This document shows positions 6,447 to 15,634 of a stretch of DNA of 35,284 nucleotides, piece after piece. The translations under genes and the position numbers were made by a program. The stretch comes from Acidobacteriota bacterium. GTDB lineage: Bacteria; Acidobacteriota; Vicinamibacteria; Vicinamibacterales; UBA2999. The stretch lies in contig JAIVJN010000031.1 of the NCBI GenBank assembly GCA_020200025.1, forward strand, positions 1-35,284, read 5' to 3'. Within the stretch, counting starts at the first letter, position 1. Each line of letters opens with the position of its first letter. The notes under the pieces are model-generated. The model saw only the letters and a program-made list of their open reading frames with translations, did no database searches and was not told where the DNA came from.

Positions 6447-7507
6447 GCCGGCCCGAGCTGGCGCTGGCGCTTGTCGGGTTTGGACACGTCGGGCAGCGCT
6501 TCTTACGGCTGCTCGACGAGGTGGCCGATCGCCTCGACTTCGACTGGCGCCTGGTGGCCATCGCGACCAGACGTCATGGATGTGCCGTGGATGCCGACGG
6601 CATCGACGCCGACCGCGCACTGGCGACGATGGAGGGGCGTCTCTCGCTCGAGCGCCTCGATCACGAGCCCCAACAGCGCAGCGGCATCGACGTCGTTCGG
6701 CGCGTCACGGACGTTCTCGCCGACGAAGCCAGCGAGGGCCGGCTCGTGACGATCGAAACAACCCTGCTCGACATCGAGCAGGGTGAGCCAGCCACGGCGC
6801 ACGTGCGCGCCTCGCTCGAAGGGCTCGCTCACGTCGTCACCGCCAACAAGGGACCCGTGGCGTTCGGGTATCGCGATCTCGAATCACTGGCGGAGTCGGT
6901 CGATCGCTTCTTTCTGTTCGAAGGCGCAGTCATGGACGGCGTGCCAGTCTTCAATCTCGTCCGCGAGACCATGCCAGGCGTCGTCGTCGAGGCGTTCCGC
7001 GGAGTGATCAACAGCACCTGCAACTACGTGCTCGCGGAGCTCGAACGTGGCACGCCCTTCGACGATGCGATTGCGGCGATGCAGGCGCAGGGCATCGCGG
7101 AAGCCGACCCCTCGCACGATGTCGATGGATGGGACGCGGCCGCAAAGACGGCAGCGCTCGCCAACGTCCTTCTCGATGCCGTCATCACGCCGCACCAAGT
7201 CGAACGAACGGGCATTCGGGATGTCACGGCGGCCGACGCGTCCGAAGCGGTCGCCAGTGGGCGCCGTATCCGGCTCGTGGCTTCTGCCGCGCGACACGGT
7301 CGCACGATCGAGGCGCGGGTCGAGCCCGAGCTGCTCGATGGCCGCGATCCACTCGCCAATCTCACCGGCACCGAGAACGCGCTCTACTTGAAGACGGATC
7401 TGCTCGGCGAAATCGGCGTCGTGCAACGTACCGGGTCGGTCGCGCAGACGGCGTATGCGCTGCTCAGCGACGTCATGAGGATCAGCCGGCGATTCCGTGA
7501 GTTGTAG
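6443..7507 (+). CDS. Homoserine dehydrogenase-like (short form, no ACT domain)
   Basis: GFGHVG, VVTANKGP, FEGAVMDGVP, GVINSTCN and AEADP..DVDGWDAAAK motifs. ATGA overlap with the upstream gene. Confidence 0.85.
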   Translation: MSRPELALALVGFGHVGQRFLRLLDEVADRLDFDWRLVAIATRRHGCAVDADGIDADRALATMEGRLSLERLDHEPQQRSGIDVVRRVTDVLADEASEGRLVTIETTLLDIEQGEPATAHVRASLEGLAHVVTANKGPVAFGYRDLESLAESVDRFFLFEGAVMDGVPVFNLVRETMPGVVVEAFRGVINSTCNYVLAELERGTPFDDAIAAMQAQGIAEADPSHDVDGWDAAAKTAALANVLLDAVITPHQVERTGIRDVTAADASEAVASGRRIRLVASAARHGRTIEARVEPELLDGRDPLANLTGTENALYLKTDLLGEIGVVQRTGSVAQTAYALLSDVMRISRRFREL

Positions 7508-7552
7508 GCGACACCGCGCCTCGGTTTTCCTCTTTATTCGTACAATAGCCGG

Positions 7553-8740
7553 ATGACCGCACCGCTCGAGGGCGTGACGGTGCTCGACCTGACGCGCGTG
7601 CTGTCCGGTCCGTATTGCACCATGGTGTTGGGCGATCTTGGCGCCCGCATCATCAAGCTGGAGCATCCAGCCCGCGGCGACGACACGCGCCACTGGGGAC
7701 CGCCGTTCCTAGCCGATCAGAGCGCCTATTTCCTGAGCATCAATCGCAACAAGGAGAGCCTCACGCTCGACTTCAAGCACGTGGACGCCGGCGAGGTTCT
7801 CGCGCGGCTGCTGCCGCGGGTCGACGTCCTGGTCGAGAACTTCCGTCCGGGGACGCTCGATGGATGCGAGCTCGATGCGGACACGCTGCTCCAGCGGTTT
7901 CCGCGTCTCGTGTACTGCTCGATTTCCGGATACGGCCAGACCGGTCCGCGCTCGCGCGAGCCGGGCTACGATGCGGTGATTCAGGCCGAGGGCGGCTTGA
8001 TGAGCGTGACGGGCGATGCCGACGGTCCGGCGTTCCGCCTCGGTGTGGCCATCTCCGACATCACCGCGGGTCTCTTCGCGGCGCAAGGGGTGCTGGCCGC
8101 CCTTCTGGCCCGCGAGCGTACGGGACGCGGCCAGCTCGTCGACGTCGGCATGCTCGACTCGACCGCTGCCCTTCTCACCTATCAAGCCGCCATCCATTTT
8201 GCGACCGGTCAGCCACCGGCGCGCATGGGCAACCGACATCCGACGATTGCGCCCTACGAGACATTCACGGCAACGGATGGCGAAGTGGTCGTGGCAGTCG
8301 GCAACGATGCCATCTGGCGCCGCTTTTGTGCCGCTGCCGGCTTGGACGGCCTCGCCGAGGATCACCGCTTTGCAACGAACCGTGGACGGTTGACGAATTA
8401 CACCGAGCTCAGGCCGATCCTGGCCGAGCGGCTCGGCACGAGGTCACGCGCCGAATGGCTCACACGCTTCACCGCGGCGGGCGTGCCGTGCGGGTCCGTG
8501 CGGAGCGTCGGCGAGGTCCTCGCGGATCCGCACCTGGCCTCGCGACAGATGATCCACGCGCTGCCGCACCCGACGGCCGGATTCGTGCAGGTGATCGGAT
8601 CGCCGCTCAAGCTCTCGGACACACCCACGAGCGTGCGTACGGCTCCGCCCGTCCTCGGACAGCACACCGAGTCGATCCTGTCGGAGCTCGGGTTCGGGTC
8701 GACGGCGATTGACGGGTTGCGATCAGCTGGAGCGGTCTAG
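7553..8740 (+). CDS. Family III CoA transferase (CaiB/BaiF)
   Basis: LDLTRVLSGP, GDDTR, NRNKES, VENFRPG, GYGQTGP and PPVLGQHT motifs. Confidence 0.92.
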   Translation: MTAPLEGVTVLDLTRVLSGPYCTMVLGDLGARIIKLEHPARGDDTRHWGPPFLADQSAYFLSINRNKESLTLDFKHVDAGEVLARLLPRVDVLVENFRPGTLDGCELDADTLLQRFPRLVYCSISGYGQTGPRSREPGYDAVIQAEGGLMSVTGDADGPAFRLGVAISDITAGLFAAQGVLAALLARERTGRGQLVDVGMLDSTAALLTYQAAIHFATGQPPARMGNRHPTIAPYETFTATDGEVVVAVGNDAIWRRFCAAAGLDGLAEDHRFATNRGRLTNYTELRPILAERLGTRSRAEWLTRFTAAGVPCGSVRSVGEVLADPHLASRQMIHALPHPTAGFVQVIGSPLKLSDTPTSVRTAPPVLGQHTESILSELGFGSTAIDGLRSAGAV

Positions 8741-9022: not shown

Positions 9023-9397
9023 ATGGATACCGGCCTCGTCCGTAAACGTCTTCGCTCTGCCGTCGATGCGGCGCGCAGGGAAGCCACGGCACGCCGCTCT
9101 CGCGCTGACGCGTCCGCAAAAGCTTACGAGCAATTCCTCGTCGACGTGGCTGTGCCGGCATTCCGCGCCATGGCCACTGCGCTTCGCGCCGAAGGACTGC
9201 CGTTCGAGGTGATGACCCCGTCCGATGCCGTACGGTTGGTGCCGGAACGCAATCGTGACGATGGGATCACGCTCGAGCTCGATGCGACGGCCGATCCGCC
9301 GATGCCGCTCGTCTCAGTAACGCGTTCGCGGGGCAGCCGCGTCGTCCAGCGCGAGCGAACCGTGAGAGGGGCCGCCACCCCGTACGCCCCCGGATAG
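9023..9397 (+). CDS. Hypothetical protein, 3' end apparently truncated near 9370
   Basis: Protein-like ORF (MDTGLVRKRLRSAVDAARRE...) that runs head-on into the convergent methyltransferase with no normal end. Confidence 0.6.
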   Translation: MDTGLVRKRLRSAVDAARREATARRSRADASAKAYEQFLVDVAVPAFRAMATALRAEGLPFEVMTPSDAVRLVPERNRDDGITLELDATADPPMPLVSVTRSRGSRVVQRERTVRGAATPYAPG

Positions 9398-9996
9398 CGA
9401 CGGATCGATTCGGGAATATACCGATAGGTGTCCGGATCGCCGTGCAGCACCCACCCCACCACGCTGCCGACGCGGGCGAGATAGCTCAAATAGAGCCGCC
9501 GCAGACGAGCGTCGTCCGGACGATTGAAATCGAGTGAAAGGAACCGGCCACCAGGTTTGAGGACGCGGGCGATTTCCTCGAGAGCAGGGCCGAGCTCCGG
9601 GACATTTCTCAATCCGTAACCCGTCGTGACGACTTCGAACGACGCGCCACGAAACGGCAGCGCCATCATGTCGCCGGTGAGGAAAGCCGGACTGGGCTGG
9701 CCGCGCGCCTTGGCGACGGCGATCTCCAGCATGCGATGAGTGACGTCGAGCCCGACCGTGGCCGCCCCCTTCGCACGAAGCAGGTAGGTGATGTCGCCTG
9801 TGCCGGCAGCTAGATCCAGCGCCCGTTCGCCGGGATGGATGTCGGCGAGCTGCACGAGCCGCTTTTTCCAATGCCGATCGCGACCGTAGGAGAACAGGAC
9901 CGTGATGAGATCGTAGCGGTCCGCAATGGTAGCGAAGAGCCGTCGAACGTGGATGCGCTTGCTCTCCGGCGTATCGAAGGCGGCTTCGAGGGACAC
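9370..9996 (-). CDS. UbiE/MenG family SAM methyltransferase, C-terminus missing at the junction
   Basis: LFATIADRYDL, LDLAAGTGD, GYGLRNV, RVLKPGG and TYRYIPESIRRYP motifs. The rest of the ORF to 9124 is antisense of the neighbouring gene. Confidence 0.8.
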
Positions 9997-10003
9997 GCGA
10001 TGA

Positions 10004-10405
10004 TTATCGCGCCACCACCTCGATGACGCCGCGCATCATCTCGGAGTGCGGCCGGCACTGATATTCGTACGTGCCCGGCGCGGTGGGCGCCTCGAACGTG
10101 ACGGAGCCCTGCTGACCGTTGGAGAGAGATCTCGTCGCCACGTCCCACGAGGGAATGGCGAAGTCGTGCACCATGCCCGGCGTCTCATTGCGCACGACGA
10201 TGCGGACCCGCTCACCGGCGGTGACCCGGACGATCGGGTTCATCTCTGGCTGGCCTTCGAGGACGAACGTCATCCCTCTTGTCACGAGGACGATCTGGCG
10301 CGCCGGCGCCCGTTCCGCAACGAGCGGCAGCACCGCAACGATTCCGATGAAAACCGCCGCGCAAACCGCCGCCGTGCGCCAATGTCGTCGAACTACCTTT
10401 GTCAC
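10004..10405 (-). CDS. Exported or membrane-anchored cupredoxin domain protein
   Basis: N-terminal hydrophobic segment, and type-1 Cu ligands H(DF)...C-RP-H-SEM-M in PGTYEYQCRPHSEMMRG. Confidence 0.85.
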   Translation of the reverse strand: MTKVVRRHWRTAAVCAAVFIGIVAVLPLVAERAPARQIVLVTRGMTFVLEGQPEMNPIVRVTAGERVRIVVRNETPGMVHDFAIPSWDVATRSLSNGQQGSVTFEAPTAPGTYEYQCRPHSEMMRGVIEVVAR

Positions 10406-10479
10406 GTCACCCTCATGTCATCCCGCCGATGAGCTCTACGCCCGCAGGGTTCGAGCCCCGCCTGCCGGTGCAGTCCGCT

Positions 10480-11757
10480 TTACCCGACGAACATCCCGGT
10501 CACATACATCACAACCACGCCGACGACGAGACCGGCCAGCACGGGACGTTGCAGCAAGTGCCGGCCCACGCCACCTTCGCCTGCGGTCTGCTTCAAAATC
10601 TGGCGCATCACCTGCCCGATGGCGCCGACACCGAAGCCGAGCATGAGCACGGCCCACACCGGCGAGGTGACGAACCCACCGAGCCACGCGCCGGCGATCG
10701 TCGGTACACCGCCGACCAGGCCCAACTTGAGAAGGTTTGCTACTGGCGCACGGGTGCCTTCTCGCGCCAACGGCGCCACGATCGCCAAGCCCTCGGTCGT
10801 GTTGTGCAGCGTGAAGCCGACGATGAGCAGAGAGCCGAGTGCCATTTCGCCGAGCGCGAACGCCGATCCGATGGCGAGGCCTTCGCCAAAGTTGTGGAGG
10901 CCGATGCCGATGGCGACGAGGAGCGCCAGCACCCAACCGGTGCTGGGCCCAGCGGCGGCCGACGCGGCGTTCGTCTTGTTTCGGCGCTCACCGAGGTAGA
11001 AGCCCACCGCATCGAGCGCCACCCAGGCCGCCATCGCTCCGAATACGAACAACGTCACGCCCTGGTACGACTCGGGGACGGCGGCAGCCGACTCGAGGCC
11101 GTCGAGCGCGCCGTCGACGAAGAGAAAAGCTAACAGCCCAACCGTCAACGCCAGCAGAAAGTCGAGGCCGCGCCGGTCGAGTCTGCCGACCAGCGGATAC
11201 CAGAGGAGGCCAATTGCCACGGGGATCACACCGACATACAGGCCAATCAGTGCAAAGACGCCGAAGAACCGTAATGTCGGCCGCGGCGTTTCGACGGCCA
11301 CACCAATCGCGTGATCGAATGTCGCGCCAGTCGACGTGATCAGCCTGACGAGGTGAGATTCGCCTTGCACCCACGGGTACGGAATCACGAGCCTCGTCCG
11401 ATTCAGGTGCTCGAGGCGTGTGCCCTGTTCCGCTTGAAACGTCCAGAACGCATCGTCGACCATCACTTGCGCGATGGTCACTTCGTCGGGGCCGTCGTTG
11501 AGCACACCCAGGACGATCTGGCCCGGGCTGAGCACAGCCCGCTCGATGGAAAGGCGCTCGACCGGCGGATAGCCGTCGCCGGTGACGAAGCTGGACGGCC
11601 CCCTGCCGATCAAGAGCGCCAGCAGGGCGCCGAGCAATACGAGCGGCCCGAGACCGAGCATCCAGGTGACCACGGCGCGGCGTGGAGGCGTCACCGGGGC
11701 GTCAGCCAGCGTCGAGCGCGGAGCACCGAGCGCCCCCGTGCCGACATTACGTGACAC
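10480..11757 (-). CDS. ZIP (ZupT/GufA) family metal transporter with an N-terminal TM plus soluble domain
   Basis: IGLHNFGEGLAIG and LHNTTEGLAI ZIP motifs. GTG start at 11757 with GGAGG RBS, overlapping the oxidase stop. Confidence 0.88.
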   Translation of the reverse strand: MSRNVGTGALGAPRSTLADAPVTPPRRAVVTWMLGLGPLVLLGALLALLIGRGPSSFVTGDGYPPVERLSIERAVLSPGQIVLGVLNDGPDEVTIAQVMVDDAFWTFQAEQGTRLEHLNRTRLVIPYPWVQGESHLVRLITSTGATFDHAIGVAVETPRPTLRFFGVFALIGLYVGVIPVAIGLLWYPLVGRLDRRGLDFLLALTVGLLAFLFVDGALDGLESAAAVPESYQGVTLFVFGAMAAWVALDAVGFYLGERRNKTNAASAAAGPSTGWVLALLVAIGIGLHNFGEGLAIGSAFALGEMALGSLLIVGFTLHNTTEGLAIVAPLAREGTRAPVANLLKLGLVGGVPTIAGAWLGGFVTSPVWAVLMLGFGVGAIGQVMRQILKQTAGEGGVGRHLLQRPVLAGLVVGVVVMYVTGMFVG

Positions 11758-12793
11758 TGCCAGCCTCCGCACGGAACAGTCCCATCCATCCGAGCTCGGC
11801 GAACTCGCTCTGATGGGCGTGGAACATGAAGTCACCGGGATACCGGAACGTGGTCTCGAGGATGGCGCGCTCGCCTTGCGCGAGCACGATTGTGTCGATG
11901 TGCTCGACGTGCGCCGAGGGCGTGCCGGTCCGCGCGGCATCGAAGAACATGCCGTGCAGATGGAAGCTGTTGAGCAGATCGAACTCGGTGAGGTTCACGA
12001 GATAGATGCGCACCGGCCGACCGACGGTGACGCGCACCGGATCGGTCATGTAGGCGTTGGCGATCGAATTGACCGCGTAGACTTCGTTTTCGTTATCGAA
12101 GTTGGTGTCGAACGCGTTCATCACCATGACCATTTCGTCGGCCGGCGCCCGACCGCCTCGGGGATCGACGATGAACGCGCCGTAGAGGCCCTTGTGAATG
12201 TGACGCTTCAGCGGCACGGCGTGGCAGTGATACAAGTGCAGCCCGACCGGCTCGGCATCGAACTCGTACAGGAACGAGCCACCAGGCATGACCTGATGCT
12301 CGGGCAACGATCCGTCCATTTCCGGCGGGTGCCACCCGTGGAAGTGAATGGTGTGCGGGTGCGATCCCTGGTTGACGAACCGAATGCGCAGGTGATCGCC
12401 CTCCGTCGCGCGGATGGTCGGTCCCGGTACCTCGCCGTTGTACGTCCAGGCGGGGAAGAACAATCCGGGAGCGATCTCGATCTCGCGGTCGACGGCGAAG
12501 ATGTCGTACTCGCGCAGCATCGACCCATCGGGGCGCGAGGTTTCTCGGTAGACCTTCTCGCGCTCGGCGTCCGGTAGATGATTGAAGTTGAAACCGCGCA
12601 GGAACCTGACGGCATCGAAGGCCGACTTTTCGACACGCCCGACCGTCCCCATGGCATGGGCGTGAACCGCATGCTCGGCGCTCGTCGGGGACGCCTGACC
12701 GGAGAGGGCCCGAGTCCAGGCTGCCGCTCCTGTGAGAACGGCGCCGAAACCCGCCACCTGCATCCAGTCCCGGCGGGAGAGTGTCCACTTCAT
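11747..12793 (-). CDS. Tat-exported two-domain multicopper oxidase (type-C-like)
   Basis: SRRDW Tat signal. Domain 1 has HTIHFH and HCH....HIHKGL. Domain 2 has FHLH and HAH (no Cys). Confidence 0.9.
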   Translation of the reverse strand: MKWTLSRRDWMQVAGFGAVLTGAAAWTRALSGQASPTSAEHAVHAHAMGTVGRVEKSAFDAVRFLRGFNFNHLPDAEREKVYRETSRPDGSMLREYDIFAVDREIEIAPGLFFPAWTYNGEVPGPTIRATEGDHLRIRFVNQGSHPHTIHFHGWHPPEMDGSLPEHQVMPGGSFLYEFDAEPVGLHLYHCHAVPLKRHIHKGLYGAFIVDPRGGRAPADEMVMVMNAFDTNFDNENEVYAVNSIANAYMTDPVRVTVGRPVRIYLVNLTEFDLLNSFHLHGMFFDAARTGTPSAHVEHIDTIVLAQGERAILETTFRYPGDFMFHAHQSEFAELGWMGLFRAEAGSVT

Positions 12794-12813
12794 AGTTTTG
12801 ACCGTTCAAAATT
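12794..12813. promoter_or_regulatory. Putative DtxR/MntR-family operator AGTTTTGACCGTTCAAAATT
   Basis: AT-rich palindrome TTTTGA-N4-TCAAAA abutting the oxidase ATG. It overlaps the predicted start of a minus-strand TTGACG-N18-TTTAAT promoter, and the regulator gene is divergent. Confidence 0.65.
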
Positions 12814-12878
12814 AAACCACGCCAGTGGCCGAAACGTCAAGCGCGGTTTGACGTGTCTGCTACCATTTGCAAGGGGCC

Positions 12879-13553
12879 ATGTTTCCTTCGAGTACCGTCG
12901 AAAACTACCTCAAAGCCATCTACCTCGGTGGTGAGGGTCAACTCGAAGTTCAGCGTTTGATGCCCATGGGTCAGTTGTCGGCGGCCCTCGGCGTCGCGCC
13001 CGGCACCGCCACCACGATGGTGAAGGCGCTGGCCGAGTCGGGGCTCGTCGAGTACGAGCCGTACAACGGCGTGCGGCTGTCGGCCGCCGGCGAGAAGCTG
13101 GCGGCTCTCGTGTTGCGCCGGCACCGTTTGGTCGAGCTCTTCCTTGTCCGAGTCATGGGAATGCCCTGGGACGAGGTGCACGACGAGGCAGAGCAGCTCG
13201 AGCACGCGGTGTCCGATCGGCTCATCGAACGGATCGATCAGATGCTGGGCCATCCCGAGGTCGATCCGCACGGGGACCCCATCCCCGACCCCGACGGGCA
13301 GTTGCGGCGCCGGGAGTTCGACACGCTGCTCACGTGTCCACTCAACACGCCCGTCCGTGTCACTCGAGTGACCGATCAAGATGCCGCGTTTTTGCGCTTC
13401 CTCGAGAGCCACCATCTGAAGCCAGGTGAGACGACCGAGGTCGAAGCCCGCGATCAGGTGGCCGACAGCGTGCGGCTGCGTGGACAGGACGACCAGCGCA
13501 TCACGATTGGCATGCGCGCCGCCTCGAAGTTGCTCGTGGAAACGGGAATGTAG
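12879..13553 (+). CDS. DtxR/MntR family metal-dependent repressor with C-terminal FeoA-like domain
   Basis: ENYLKAIY, RRHRLVELFL, EAEQLEH and DPHGDPIP motifs, plus an SH3/FeoA-like tail. Confidence 0.93.
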   Translation: MFPSSTVENYLKAIYLGGEGQLEVQRLMPMGQLSAALGVAPGTATTMVKALAESGLVEYEPYNGVRLSAAGEKLAALVLRRHRLVELFLVRVMGMPWDEVHDEAEQLEHAVSDRLIERIDQMLGHPEVDPHGDPIPDPDGQLRRREFDTLLTCPLNTPVRVTRVTDQDAAFLRFLESHHLKPGETTEVEARDQVADSVRLRGQDDQRITIGMRAASKLLVETGM

Positions 13554-13601
13554 GGCGGCCCTTCAGGGCCGCCGCGGGCGGGGCCAAAGTTCCGCCACTA
13601 C
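13550..13601. repeat. Inverted pair of GTAG-type REP palindromes between convergent genes
   Basis: GTAG-GGCGGCCC-TTCA-GGGCCGCC ... GGCGGGGC-CAAA-GTTCCGCC-A-CTAC. The two GTAG tetranucleotides supply the two stop codons. Confidence 0.7.
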
Positions 13602-14269
13602 CTACGGCTACCTCGCGCGAATCGATCGACGACCTCGACGAGGTCGGAGGGCCGATCGACCACGTAGCTCGTCGCAGGTGGATGCTCACGAAAGCGCGCC
13701 GCGCCGAAGCCGTAACGCGCCCAGCCGAACGCAAATCCCGCGGCCGCGGCGGTTTCAGCATCGAAAGGTGTGTCGCCCACGAGCATCGTGGGCAGGTTTC
13801 CAACTCGAGCGGCCAATGCTCTGAGCCCGGCGGGGTTGGGTTTGCGCGGCCACGGACCATCGCCGCCAATCACCTCGTCGAAGAGCTCCGCCAGCGCGAG
13901 ACCGTCCAGAATACGGCGCGAGGGCTCGACCGGCTTGTTGGTGAGCACGGCCAGCCTGGCGCGTCTCGACACGCGTGTCAGCGCATCGCGCATGCCGGGA
14001 TAGGGTCGAGTGTGGTTGAGGAGCCGATTGTCGTAGATTGCCAGGAAACGTTCGAGCGCCCCGGGTGTCTGGGGATCGACTCCAGCCGCCGACAGCGCAC
14101 GCTGTACGAGGAGCGACGCGCCTTCCCCCACCATCGCGCCGACCTCGTCCACCGCAAGCGGCCGCCCGCCGAGGGCAACGACGAGCTCGCTTGCCGACTC
14201 GGCCAGATCCTGTACCGATTCGACCAGCGTGCCGTCGAGATCGAAAACGATGAGCAGCCGGCGCGTCAC
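13598..14269 (-). CDS. HAD family hydrolase (phosphoglycolate phosphatase-like)
   Basis: FDLDGTL, LTNK, KPNP and VGDT..D motifs. Confidence 0.88.
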   Translation of the reverse strand: MTRRLLIVFDLDGTLVESVQDLAESASELVVALGGRPLAVDEVGAMVGEGASLLVQRALSAAGVDPQTPGALERFLAIYDNRLLNHTRPYPGMRDALTRVSRRARLAVLTNKPVEPSRRILDGLALAELFDEVIGGDGPWPRKPNPAGLRALAARVGNLPTMLVGDTPFDAETAAAAGFAFGWARYGFGAARFREHPPATSYVVDRPSDLVEVVDRFARGSRR

Positions 14270-14679
14270 TGCTCAACGGGCTCGCCGTAGGTGGCCCACG
14301 ACGTGGGGGTCTCCCACACGGTGACGCGCACGACGGCAAGCCCTTCCTGACGGGCGTGGTCGAAGATGAGCCGCGCGATGCGCTCAACCGTCGGGTTGCT
14401 GTCGACGATGAAGATCGGTTCGCCCAGTTGCTGCAGCGGCGCGACGAGCGGGTCGTCGTGGCGGAGCACCATCTTGTGGTCCAACTCCCGGTCGACCCAG
14501 CCTTTGACGATGCGCTTGATATCGCTGAAGTCGCACACCATGTTGCGCGAGTCGAGGAGATCGGTACGCACCTCGATCTCGGCCGTCGCGTTGTGGCCGT
14601 GCGGATGCTTGCAGATCCCGTCGTAGTCGAGAAGACGATGGCCGTAGCAGAAGTCGATGCGTTTGGTCACGGAATACAT
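14266..14679 (-). CDS. queD: 6-carboxytetrahydropterin synthase / PTPS family
   Basis: F.YGHRL, CKHPHGHN (CxxxHGH), DFSDIK, LDH, NPTVE and VWET motifs. ATG at 14679. Confidence 0.85.
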   Translation of the reverse strand: MYSVTKRIDFCYGHRLLDYDGICKHPHGHNATAEIEVRTDLLDSRNMVCDFSDIKRIVKGWVDRELDHKMVLRHDDPLVAPLQQLGEPIFIVDSNPTVERIARLIFDHARQEGLAVVRVTVWETPTSWATYGEPVEQ

Positions 14680-14685
14680 GGAACA

Positions 14686-14864
14686 CTCCAGGGCTGGAGA
14701 ACCACGTGCTGATTGAAGGTCGCCAACGCAGCCTTCCAGCACGCTTCGGTTCTTGGTGGCGGGGCCCAATAGCCGCACCGGCGAGCCACCACATGGCATC
14801 GCATAGGCGCGCGACGCCGGGCGCAGAACACGTGCGATTGTCCTCAGACCCGACACGCCGATGC
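14686..14864 (-). promoter_or_regulatory. Candidate structured 5' leader / ncRNA upstream of queD
   Basis: Four consecutive hairpins read by eye. The last one (CTCCA-GCCC-TGGAG) covers the GGAG RBS. Confidence 0.4.
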
Positions 14865-14890
14865 AATCCCATCTGCGGCATGATTCTCCC

Positions 14891-15634
14891 ATGACGCTCG
14901 TCCTGCTCTCCGGCGGACTCGACAGCGCAGTGCTGCTCGCTCACGAATCGCGCGAGCACGTCGTGCATCCGCTCTTTGTCAGCGTTGGTTTGGCGTGGGA
15001 ATGGGCAGAGCTGCGCGTGCTGGATCGTCTGCTCGCCGCGCCCGTCTTTGCCGGCCGCGTGCGGCCGCTCAGCCGCGCCGAGCTCACCATGCGTGACGTC
15101 TATTCGCCAAGCCATTGGGCGATCCGCGGCACACCCCCCGCGTATGACACGCCGGACGAGGCGGTCTATCTCGCCGGCAGAAATCTCGTGCTCCTGACAA
15201 AGGCGGGTGTCGTCGCCGCCGAGAGACGCCTGCAACGCATCGCGCTCGCTCCACTCGCAGGCAATCCCTTTCCCGATGCCCGTCCGGAGTTTTTCGCCGC
15301 GATGGAGCGGAGTCTGACGTTGGGGCTCGATCACCCGGTGACGGTGGTTGCGCCGTTCTTGCATCGGCAGAAGGCAGACATCATCATGCTGGGGCGAGCG
15401 CTGGGTGTGCCGCTGGAATTGACATTGTCGTGCATGAGCCCGTGCGGGAGAGACGCGAGCGACGTGGCGCGTGGGACAGAGGGCGCGGGGCCGCTGCCCA
15501 TCCACTGTGGCCGGTGCAGCAAGTGCCGCGAGCGCAAGGAGGCGTTCGGCGCCGCGGGTGTTCGCGACCCTACGCCGTACGCAACCGATGAAACCATCGC
15601 TGGCGACACGATCGCTGGCGAAGGAACGAGCTAA
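14891..15634 (+). CDS. queC: 7-cyano-7-deazaguanine synthase QueC-like PP-loop ATPase
   Basis: SGGLDS, GRN, NPFPDARPEF, and Zn motif SC...CGRCSKCRER. Confidence 0.82.
   Translation: MTLVLLSGGLDSAVLLAHESREHVVHPLFVSVGLAWEWAELRVLDRLLAAPVFAGRVRPLSRAELTMRDVYSPSHWAIRGTPPAYDTPDEAVYLAGRNLVLLTKAGVVAAERRLQRIALAPLAGNPFPDARPEFFAAMERSLTLGLDHPVTVVAPFLHRQKADIIMLGRALGVPLELTLSCMSPCGRDASDVARGTEGAGPLPIHCGRCSKCRERKEAFGAAGVRDPTPYATDETIAGDTIAGEGTS

Follow-up and report, generated by a model that had tools for sequence, protein, structure and literature searches.

A conserved module comprising a two-domain multicopper oxidase and a domain-extended ZIP importer beside a DtxR/MntR-family regulator, a candidate metal-acquisition system of bacteria

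Results and discussion

The window analysed here is a stretch of 35,284 nucleotides, positions 1 to 35,284 of contig JAIVJN010000031.1 in the assembly GCA_020200025.1 of an Acidobacteriota bacterium (Vicinamibacteria, Vicinamibacterales). It contains a putative operon for a multicopper oxidase (MCO), an importer of the ZIP family and a small cupredoxin, transcribed divergently from the gene of a DtxR/MntR-family regulator (Table 1). A preliminary description of the sequence had proposed an operon with a two-domain MCO exported by the twin-arginine translocation (Tat) system, an overlapping ZIP gene and a cupredoxin gene, as well as a divergent regulator and a palindrome abutting the ATG of the MCO gene, and all of these were located. 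The mechanically predicted open reading frame (ORF) of the ZIP gene (10480-11940) was over-long. Since the called public product P0001 has 425 amino acids, the start was placed at GTG 11755-11757, which overlaps the stop codon of the MCO gene (11747-11749) by 11 nt. Genome-wide searches were performed in the assembly of 4.34 Mb, which is 82% complete.

Table 1 Positions of the genes and regulatory features in the window
Feature	Position	Strand	Remarks
DtxR/MntR-family regulator	12879..13553	+	winged helix-turn-helix, metal-binding/dimerisation domain, FeoA-like SH3 domain; Pfam matches
Operator palindrome TAGTTTTGA-ccgt-TCAAAATTA	12793..12814		core 12796-12811; abuts the MCO ATG
Putative promoter of the MCO operon	12811..12840	-	-35 TTGACG 12835-12840, 18-nt spacer, -10 TTTAAT 12811-12816; read by eye
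Two-domain multicopper oxidase (MCO) with Tat signal	11747..12793	-	348 aa; Pfam, copper-ligand alignment
Extended ZIP importer	10480..11757	-	425 aa; N-terminal transmembrane helix, beta-sandwich, 8-helix ZIP core
Extra periplasmic domain of the ZIP (residues 58-160)	11278..11586	-	structure model; predicted MCO docking
Small cupredoxin	10004..10405	-	133 aa; N-terminal hydrophobic anchor or signal; type-1 copper ligands
UbiE/COQ5-type methyltransferase	9124..9996	-	Pfam PF01209, 141 bits; 8 nt downstream of the cupredoxin gene

The pairing of oxidase and importer is conserved. A scan with the ZIP alignment yielded 80 loci, some of them cut by contig ends, in records of Acidobacteriota, Gemmatimonadota, Anaerolineae, Poribacteria and Paenibacillus, and the neighbouring genes were counted by tblastn. 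An MCO gene was located directly upstream of the ZIP gene in all 80 loci, and overlaps of start and stop codons between the two genes were common. In the reverse direction, 15 of 16 MCO-positive genomes had the ZIP gene directly downstream of the MCO gene; in the exception, G076, the two genes were on different contigs. The preliminary description had made the existence of a module depend on conserved linkage in other genomes, and this linkage was found in both directions of counting. The proposed co-conservation of four genes held for the MCO-ZIP pair and, with 59 of 80 loci, for a nearby DtxR-family gene (48 divergent, 11 co-directional; 6 further loci were cut by a contig end and 15 had no such gene). 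It did not hold for the cupredoxin gene, which was found downstream of the ZIP gene in 59 loci, was absent from 17 and lay beyond a contig end in 4; this gene is lineage-specific and not part of the core. The MCO was present in 8 of 151 genomes sampled in the phylum, a tally including G000 and G049, the latter flagged as unpublished, and in 11 of 201 genomes of the class. From this patchy occurrence we conclude that the module moves, and is kept, as a unit.

All 59 loci with a cupredoxin gene were among those closest to the window and carried mostly Acidobacteriota, Vicinamibacterales and Thermoanaerobaculia labels; the 17 loci without it included every locus of Gemmatimonadota, Anaerolineae, Poribacteria and Paenibacillus. 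The cupredoxin of the window, a type-1 protein of the amicyanin/plastocyanin kind, reached 31.9 bits with the Pfam family Copper-bind (cut-off 21.2), and its copper ligands H80, C117, H120 and M124 were conserved in 90% or more of 58 sequences. Both Paenibacillus loci (L073, L081) had a gene for a small class-I cytochrome c in its place downstream of the ZIP gene. In Paenibacillus filicis KACC 14197 (L081), genes for oxidase, ZIP, a TatA-family protein and the small cytochrome c stand in a row (the last two at 7111-7329 and 7332-7865), and the N-terminus of the cytochrome c of P. hodogayensis JCM 12520 (L073, 7022-7423) resembles a lipoprotein signal. With a cupredoxin in some lineages and a cytochrome c in others, a one-electron carrier is thus a recurring but replaceable accessory. 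Further genes were observed next to single modules: a TonB-dependent receptor and an AhpC/TSA-type redoxin follow the cupredoxin gene in L045 (7474-10268), and a YceI-like protein is encoded after the ZIP in an Anaerolineaceae locus (L077, 7246-7950).

The MCO matched the Pfam families Cu-oxidase_3 (89 bits, residues 114-212) and Cu-oxidase_2 (80 bits, residues 234-343), and its structure model was all-beta with two cupredoxin domains. The N-terminus (MKWTLSRRDWMQ...) is a twin-arginine motif. The SRR motif was present in every inspected orthologue but L081, where the chosen start looks wrong and an upstream start brings the motif back. In an alignment of 20 orthologues from several phyla, the four HxH pairs of the trinuclear cluster (H150/H152, H189/H191, H278/H280 and H325/H327) were invariant, as were the type-1 copper residues H145, C190 and H198 in domain 1; H145 is presumably a type-1 ligand, assigned from the motif spacing of NirK and MCOs. 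The axial position of the type-1 site is L203, with a methionine in Paenibacillus. Judged from these residues, the MCO is a complete four-copper two-domain enzyme of type C with the type-1 site in domain 1. An assignment to the NirK nitrite reductases was rejected: the NirK model gave 97.5 bits, where 296 would be required, and NirK chemistry is ruled out by the presence of all eight histidines of the trinuclear cluster. Among the solved structures, the MCO shares 55% identity with MhMCO of Marinithermus hydrothermalis (PDB 7RAB/7RAC) and 53% with PDB 3GDC, in both cases over the whole mature enzyme and with the same family and copper motifs (profile 498 bits; Foldseek E about 2-3e-38, target TM-scores 0.85-0.92). 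These relatives differ in having been solved as isolated oxidases, 7RAB as a dodecamer of four trimers. Three copies of the window MCO (residues 60-345) folded together with a pLDDT of 95, and the solved relatives are trimers or a dodecamer; the enzyme is probably trimeric. The residues from about 32 to 52 (window 12640-12700), a low-confidence stretch behind the Tat signal, are rich in histidine (AEHAVHAHAMG...) and may be a metal-binding tail; in relatives, a conserved G-x-V-G-R-V motif follows this stretch.

The ZIP model had a mean pLDDT of 86 and consisted of an N-terminal helix (residues 26-52), a seven-strand beta-sandwich (residues 69-151, or about 66-155), modelled at a pLDDT of 93-98, and a helical core. 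The core has eight helices carrying the motifs HNFGEG and HNTTEG on helices 4 and 5, as expected for the binuclear site of the ZIP family (SLC39, TC 2.A.5), and the transport-site residues H288, N289, E292, H318, N319 and E322 were invariant in 29 ZIP sequences. It resembled BbZIP (profile E 1e-7; Foldseek E 3e-7, target TM-score 0.72), and the score with the Pfam family Zip was 26.7-30.5 bits, below the gathering cut-off of 35.1. By these comparisons the importer is a member of a divergent ZIP subfamily. It shares with BbZIP (PDB 5TSA and others) and the ZupT-type ZIPs the eight-helix core with HNxxE motifs on two central helices, and differs from them in the extra N-terminal helix, in a periplasmic beta-sandwich of 100 residues and in the Pfam score below the cut-off. 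The beta-sandwich was placed in the periplasm because of the topology set by the extra helix. For this domain no Pfam family was found at E values up to 10, matches to atlas features scored only 0.76-0.78, and Foldseek gave weak matches to archaeal FlaF/FlaG/pilin-like beta-sandwiches; the likeness was only to Ig-like sandwiches of a generic kind. When 1.84 billion proteins were searched with a profile of the domain, 860 cluster representatives (clusters of 50% identity) matched at E values of 0.001 or lower, and among the top 150 of these 860 the domain was nearly always N-terminal. Apparent MCO-ZIP fusions among the matches were frame-shifted or read-through ORFs, and the few odd placements that were inspected were mis-called ORFs across the junction of the two genes. 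In G327 (C22:571022-572204) the ZIP beside the oxidase matched in two pieces (residues 30-335 and 339-425), which could be a frameshift or a split gene.

The extra domain is the predicted docking site for the oxidase. When the ZIP domain (residues 58-160) was modelled with three MCO copies (residues 60-345), the docking score was 0.86 (0.85, 0.86 and 0.87 in three runs) versus 0.00 for the best of three controls. In the calibration of the tool, 58 of 80 solved complexes attained such a mark, as did 2 of 110 mismatched pairs; these counts are only a rough guide here, because the input consisted of shallow alignments of our own and one chain was present in three copies. The runs agreed in at least 93% of the contacts, and the pLDDT of the partner was at least 86. 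The contacts comprise residues 108-113, 230-231, 237, 245-246, 330 and 333-335 of one oxidase copy, residues 145-146, 193-197 and 231-234 of a second copy, and residues 94, 96-97, 99-104, 127-128, 130, 133-134, 138, 140 and 142-146 of the ZIP domain. They bridge two MCO subunits, therefore the domain would cover the type-1 ligand H145 and the loop from C190 to H198. On the oxidase side the predicted interface includes H145, residues 193-197 between C190 and H198, D233, E237, E330 and E333, and on the ZIP side Q97, D101, D102, Y127 and P128. D101 and D102 were modelled next to the oxidase carboxylates D233, E237, E330 and E333, all of them invariant or nearly so. The model thus predicts that the ZIP beta-sandwich docks at the type-1 copper loops of the MCO trimer. 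A solved complex of such a type is not known to us; the nearest geometric precedent is the archaeal MCO Nmar_1354 (PDB 9CCK), an enzyme that oxidises hydroxylamine and whose pendant cupredoxin lies 13.5 Å from the type-1 copper, according to the accessible portion of PMC11761707.

The relatives of the oxidase raise the question of its substrate. It may act on phenols, hydroxylamine or nitrite, as do laccase, MCO4 and NirK relatives, and the adjacency to a ZIP gene would then be mechanistically meaningless. NirK and the hydroxylamine-oxidising Nmar_1354 are indeed among the relatives, the latter with 34% identity to the window MCO (PMC11761707, accessible portion), and a laccase activity is ascribed to MhMCO, second-hand, in the part of a citing paper that is available (PMC10673308). 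Across phyla, however, the two genes adjoin in 80 of 80 loci and 15 of 16 genomes, and this, the frequent start-stop overlaps and the predicted docking argue against a chance association, and the eight histidines exclude the chemistry of NirK, so that a non-metal substrate appears extremely improbable.

The regulator matched PF01325 (Fe_dep_repress, 47 bits), PF02742 (Fe_dep_repr_C, 111 bits) and PF04023 (FeoA), and its start at ATG 12879 fits the N-termini of relatives better than the alternative TTG 12867. It is the sole PF02742 gene found in the assembly. The best NCBIfam model was the Thermus-type MntR with 166 bits (cut-off 350), versus 85 bits for DtxR. The nearest solved chains were 5ZR4, 8PVT, SloR (5CVI) and ScaR (3HRS), ahead of IdeR and DtxR; we take these four to be manganese-responsive. 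The metal-site residues E105, E108 and H109 are kept, and position 9 is N in 41 sequences and D in 16. In DtxR numbering, a glutamate stands at the position of C102 and the N or D at that of M10. The three-domain layout and the metal-site segment HDEAExLEH are shared with manganese-responsive DtxR-family repressors with an SH3-like tail, from which the lineage of the window departs in its first metal ligand, an N where they have D. From its residues, the regulator appears to be of the manganese type rather than the iron type. The preliminary description had left the metal as manganese or iron; the DtxR/MntR family was corroborated, whereas the metal-site residues and the solved relatives point to manganese and not to iron.

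Each arm of the palindrome between the divergent genes (12793-12801 and 12806-12814) has 9 nt; the arms are 89% complementary and separated by 4 nt, and the palindrome touches the ATG of the MCO gene. The operator core TTTTGACCGTTCAAAA had its sole perfect match in the assembly here, and a reversed-pattern control had none. A wider regulon was not found in the assembly, where a single site with one mismatch (C325:14419) lay inside a long ORF. Where the regulator is divergent, 37 of 44 loci had the operator at up to one mismatch and 43 of 44 at up to two. Where no regulator is adjacent, 11 of 18 loci had it at up to one mismatch, and of 73 control windows inside the oxidase gene none had it at up to two. 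To our knowledge, TTTTGA-N4-TCAAAA does not correspond to the operator of a characterised DtxR-family member. A different box, a TTAGG-N6-CCTAA-like palindrome, was seen by eye, without scoring, ahead of the regulator in most of the 11 co-directional operons (L063, L068-L072, L074-L076, L078 and L080); it resembles the classic DtxR-family boxes and differs from the TTTTGA-N4-TCAAAA of the window lineage.

In loci near the window, the region upstream of the MCO gene contains a TTGACT hexamer, a spacer of about 17 nt and a TATATT hexamer that overlaps ATTTTGA-N4-TCAAAAT. The putative promoter of the window, read by eye, matches the sigma-70 hexamers in 10 of 12 positions; its -10 hexamer lacks the A at position 2 and touches the operator. 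An operator on the -10 hexamer and the transcript start indicates the position of a repressor. Since only a few bases separate it from the ATG in several loci, the mRNA there would be leaderless or nearly so. A second inverted repeat was observed at 12825-12863 (16 nt, 81% complementary) with two TTGACG hexamers on opposite strands, which may be the -35 elements of both divergent promoters. Riboswitches, including yybP-ykoY, were not found in 7 loci without an adjacent regulator.

This arrangement bears on a role of the module in manganese detoxification or oxide deposition, in which the regulator would activate the operon when manganese is high and the ZIP would be employed otherwise. The classic Mn(II) oxidases of bacteria are multicopper oxidases, and in Bacillus subtilis efflux genes are activated by MntR. 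Activation is at odds with an operator that overlaps the -10 hexamer and the transcript start, ZIP proteins import, and the riboswitch search in the 7 loci was negative also for yybP-ykoY. We consider a detoxification system very unlikely.

Oxidase- or cupredoxin-coupled systems for high-affinity iron uptake are Fet3p-Ftr1p of yeast and, in bacteria, FtrABCD and EfeUOB. We read the locus of the window as a starvation-induced metal-acquisition operon under a manganese-type DtxR/MntR repressor, with a complex of oxidase and importer that follows the logic of Fet3/Ftr1 with other parts, and assign to this reading a probability of roughly one half. With plentiful metal, the repressor would bind the palindrome, which covers the -10 region of the MCO promoter and the start of the transcript. 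At low metal, the Tat-exported, probably trimeric four-copper oxidase and the extended ZIP would be formed, in this lineage together with a membrane-tethered cupredoxin. The beta-sandwich would dock the oxidase on the importer across two subunits and over the type-1 copper loops, placing invariant carboxylates of both proteins beside the electron-accepting type-1 copper. The covered type-1 site and the shared carboxylates suggest a metal substrate held between both proteins. This ion, most likely Mn(II) because of the type of the regulator, would be oxidised by one electron at the interface, and O2 would be reduced at the trinuclear cluster. Oxidation is regarded as the selected activity because the O2-reducing cluster is invariant. 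We infer that the oxidation is coupled to the capture or selection of the ion, which would then be imported through the ZIP core. The cupredoxin, or the cytochrome c in Paenibacillus, may serve as an accessory one-electron carrier in either direction.

Several observations weigh against this reading. The metal is assigned from the regulator alone, the regulator scored below both NCBIfam equivalog cut-offs (for MntR 166 versus 350 bits), and this lineage has N where characterised manganese sensors have D. The predicted interface was only modestly more conserved than the other positions (16 of 25 versus 119 of 261 and 9 of 21 versus 19 of 82; odds ratios 2.1 and 2.5, p ~0.06 each), the docking calibration is as rough as stated above, and the docked domain would cover the expected docking site of the cupredoxin. 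A strict sigma-70 scan of 9900-13700 revealed no promoter. The laccase activity ascribed to MhMCO is a further such point, as is the mild induction of an archaeal MCO1-ZIP gene pair by copper limitation (log2 fold changes of 0.81 and 1.33 in the accessible text of PMC7785015). Finally, ZIP cores carry divalent ions, so that an oxidised trivalent product would be without an obvious inward path. This difficulty would not arise if the ZIP imported Mn(II) and the docked oxidase only removed competing or toxic Fe(II) or Cu(I) at the mouth of the importer during manganese starvation: no trivalent ion need cross a ZIP core with the standard divalent-type motifs. The linkage, the regulation and the docking speak for such a guarding function as they do for the metal-acquisition complex, and the present results do not separate the two. 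Against it, the carriers, according to the record titles, seem to be aerobes of oxic soil and water, in which Fe(II) is scarce. We regard a guarding function as unlikely.

An uncharacterised 'MCO1 + ZIP permease' gene pair is known from ammonia-oxidising archaea, for which PMC7785015 and PMC5817080 cite Kerou et al. 2016. It is tabulated in PMC5817080 and discussed in the accessible text of PMC7785015 as a possible Fet3-like route of copper uptake, for which the authors called for validation. By the description there, the archaeal pair is similar to the module of the window: a two-domain MCO with a leucine in the axial type-1 position adjoins a zinc/iron permease (PMC7785015, accessible text). 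The archaeal papers, as far as their text is accessible, differ in proposing copper uptake, and bacterial carriers, a manganese-type regulator and operator, the extra domain and a docking are not described in these portions. The preliminary description had named no characterised example, and none was found, whereas the pair as such had already been noted in archaea (PMC7785015, accessible text). A literature search, which covered few subscription journals and no supplements, revealed neither a characterisation of the module nor a description of it from bacteria. The module is a real, widespread, tightly linked and uncharacterised oxidase-permease variant.

Transferred to the bacterial module, the copper hypothesis has two forms: the oxidase converts Cu(I) to Cu(II) for import by the ZIP, or the ZIP supplies cytoplasmic copper to load the oxidase before export. 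The hypothesis is in print for the archaeal pair and agrees with its mild induction under copper limitation (PMC7785015, accessible text), and from the Tat signal it follows that the oxidase is exported in the folded state, possibly with its copper already loaded. On the other side stand the adjacent DtxR/MntR-family regulator with its manganese-type ligands and the dedicated docking domain over the type-1 site, which a pure supply role would leave unexplained. Moreover, no copper sensor is known to us in the DtxR/MntR family. A copper system is, in our view, rather improbable.

A search of the assembly for other manganese importers gave one Nramp fragment, at a contig end with its promoter region missing, and no ZnuA/TroA-type binding protein; an Nramp gene was not found near the module in any of the 80 loci when this partial Nramp was used as the query. 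A homologue of the UbiE/COQ5-type methyltransferase gene directly followed the cupredoxin gene in 31 of 80 loci by tblastn. Co-transcription with the module is possible, as is mere synteny, and its membership in the module is doubtful. The flanks of the locus are ordinary: at 14266-15634 and 7553-8740 are genes for a 6-pyruvoyl-tetrahydropterin synthase family protein (QueD-like), QueC and a family III CoA-transferase, and a HAD hydrolase is encoded at 13598-14269. In soil metagenome sequencing runs, relatives were present as short contig pieces only. A contig of 225 nt from an RNA library mapped on the ZIP gene (10751-10973) with 6 differences, which is no proof of transcription.

Comparison with known systems

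ZIPs are thought to act alone on divalent ions, and if one of them had its own domain for docking a copper oxidase, this would be a new route to selectivity or affinity. Manganese is the weakest-binding common divalent metal, thus cells could select it by means of a redox step. Why bacteria have copper enzymes that oxidise manganese is a long-standing question that becomes testable with this module, whose carriers include cultured strains, e.g., two Paenibacillus species, and abundant soil and marine lineages. A bolder form of the metal-acquisition reading would make the module the manganese counterpart of Fet3/Ftr1: the docked oxidase would produce Mn(III) at the shared site, this step would be obligatory for high-affinity, selective uptake, and the tethered cupredoxin or cytochrome c would return the electron in some lineages. 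We are doubtful about this form. If true, the enzymatic oxidation of manganese would have a physiological purpose, and the MCO1-ZIP pair conserved in ammonia-oxidising archaea would have a function.

The likeness to Fet3/Ftr1 consists in the combination of an MCO or cupredoxin with a permease, in the induction by starvation, which for the module is predicted, in an oxidation thought to provide capture or selectivity, and in a carboxylate cluster beside the type-1 copper. The parts are different. Instead of a three-domain ferroxidase, the module has a two-domain MCO predicted to be trimeric; in place of an FTR1/OFeT permease with REXXE motifs it has a ZIP to which a predicted docking domain is added; and the regulator appears to be of the manganese type. 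On this comparison, the module would work in the manner of the Fet3/Ftr1 family without belonging to it.

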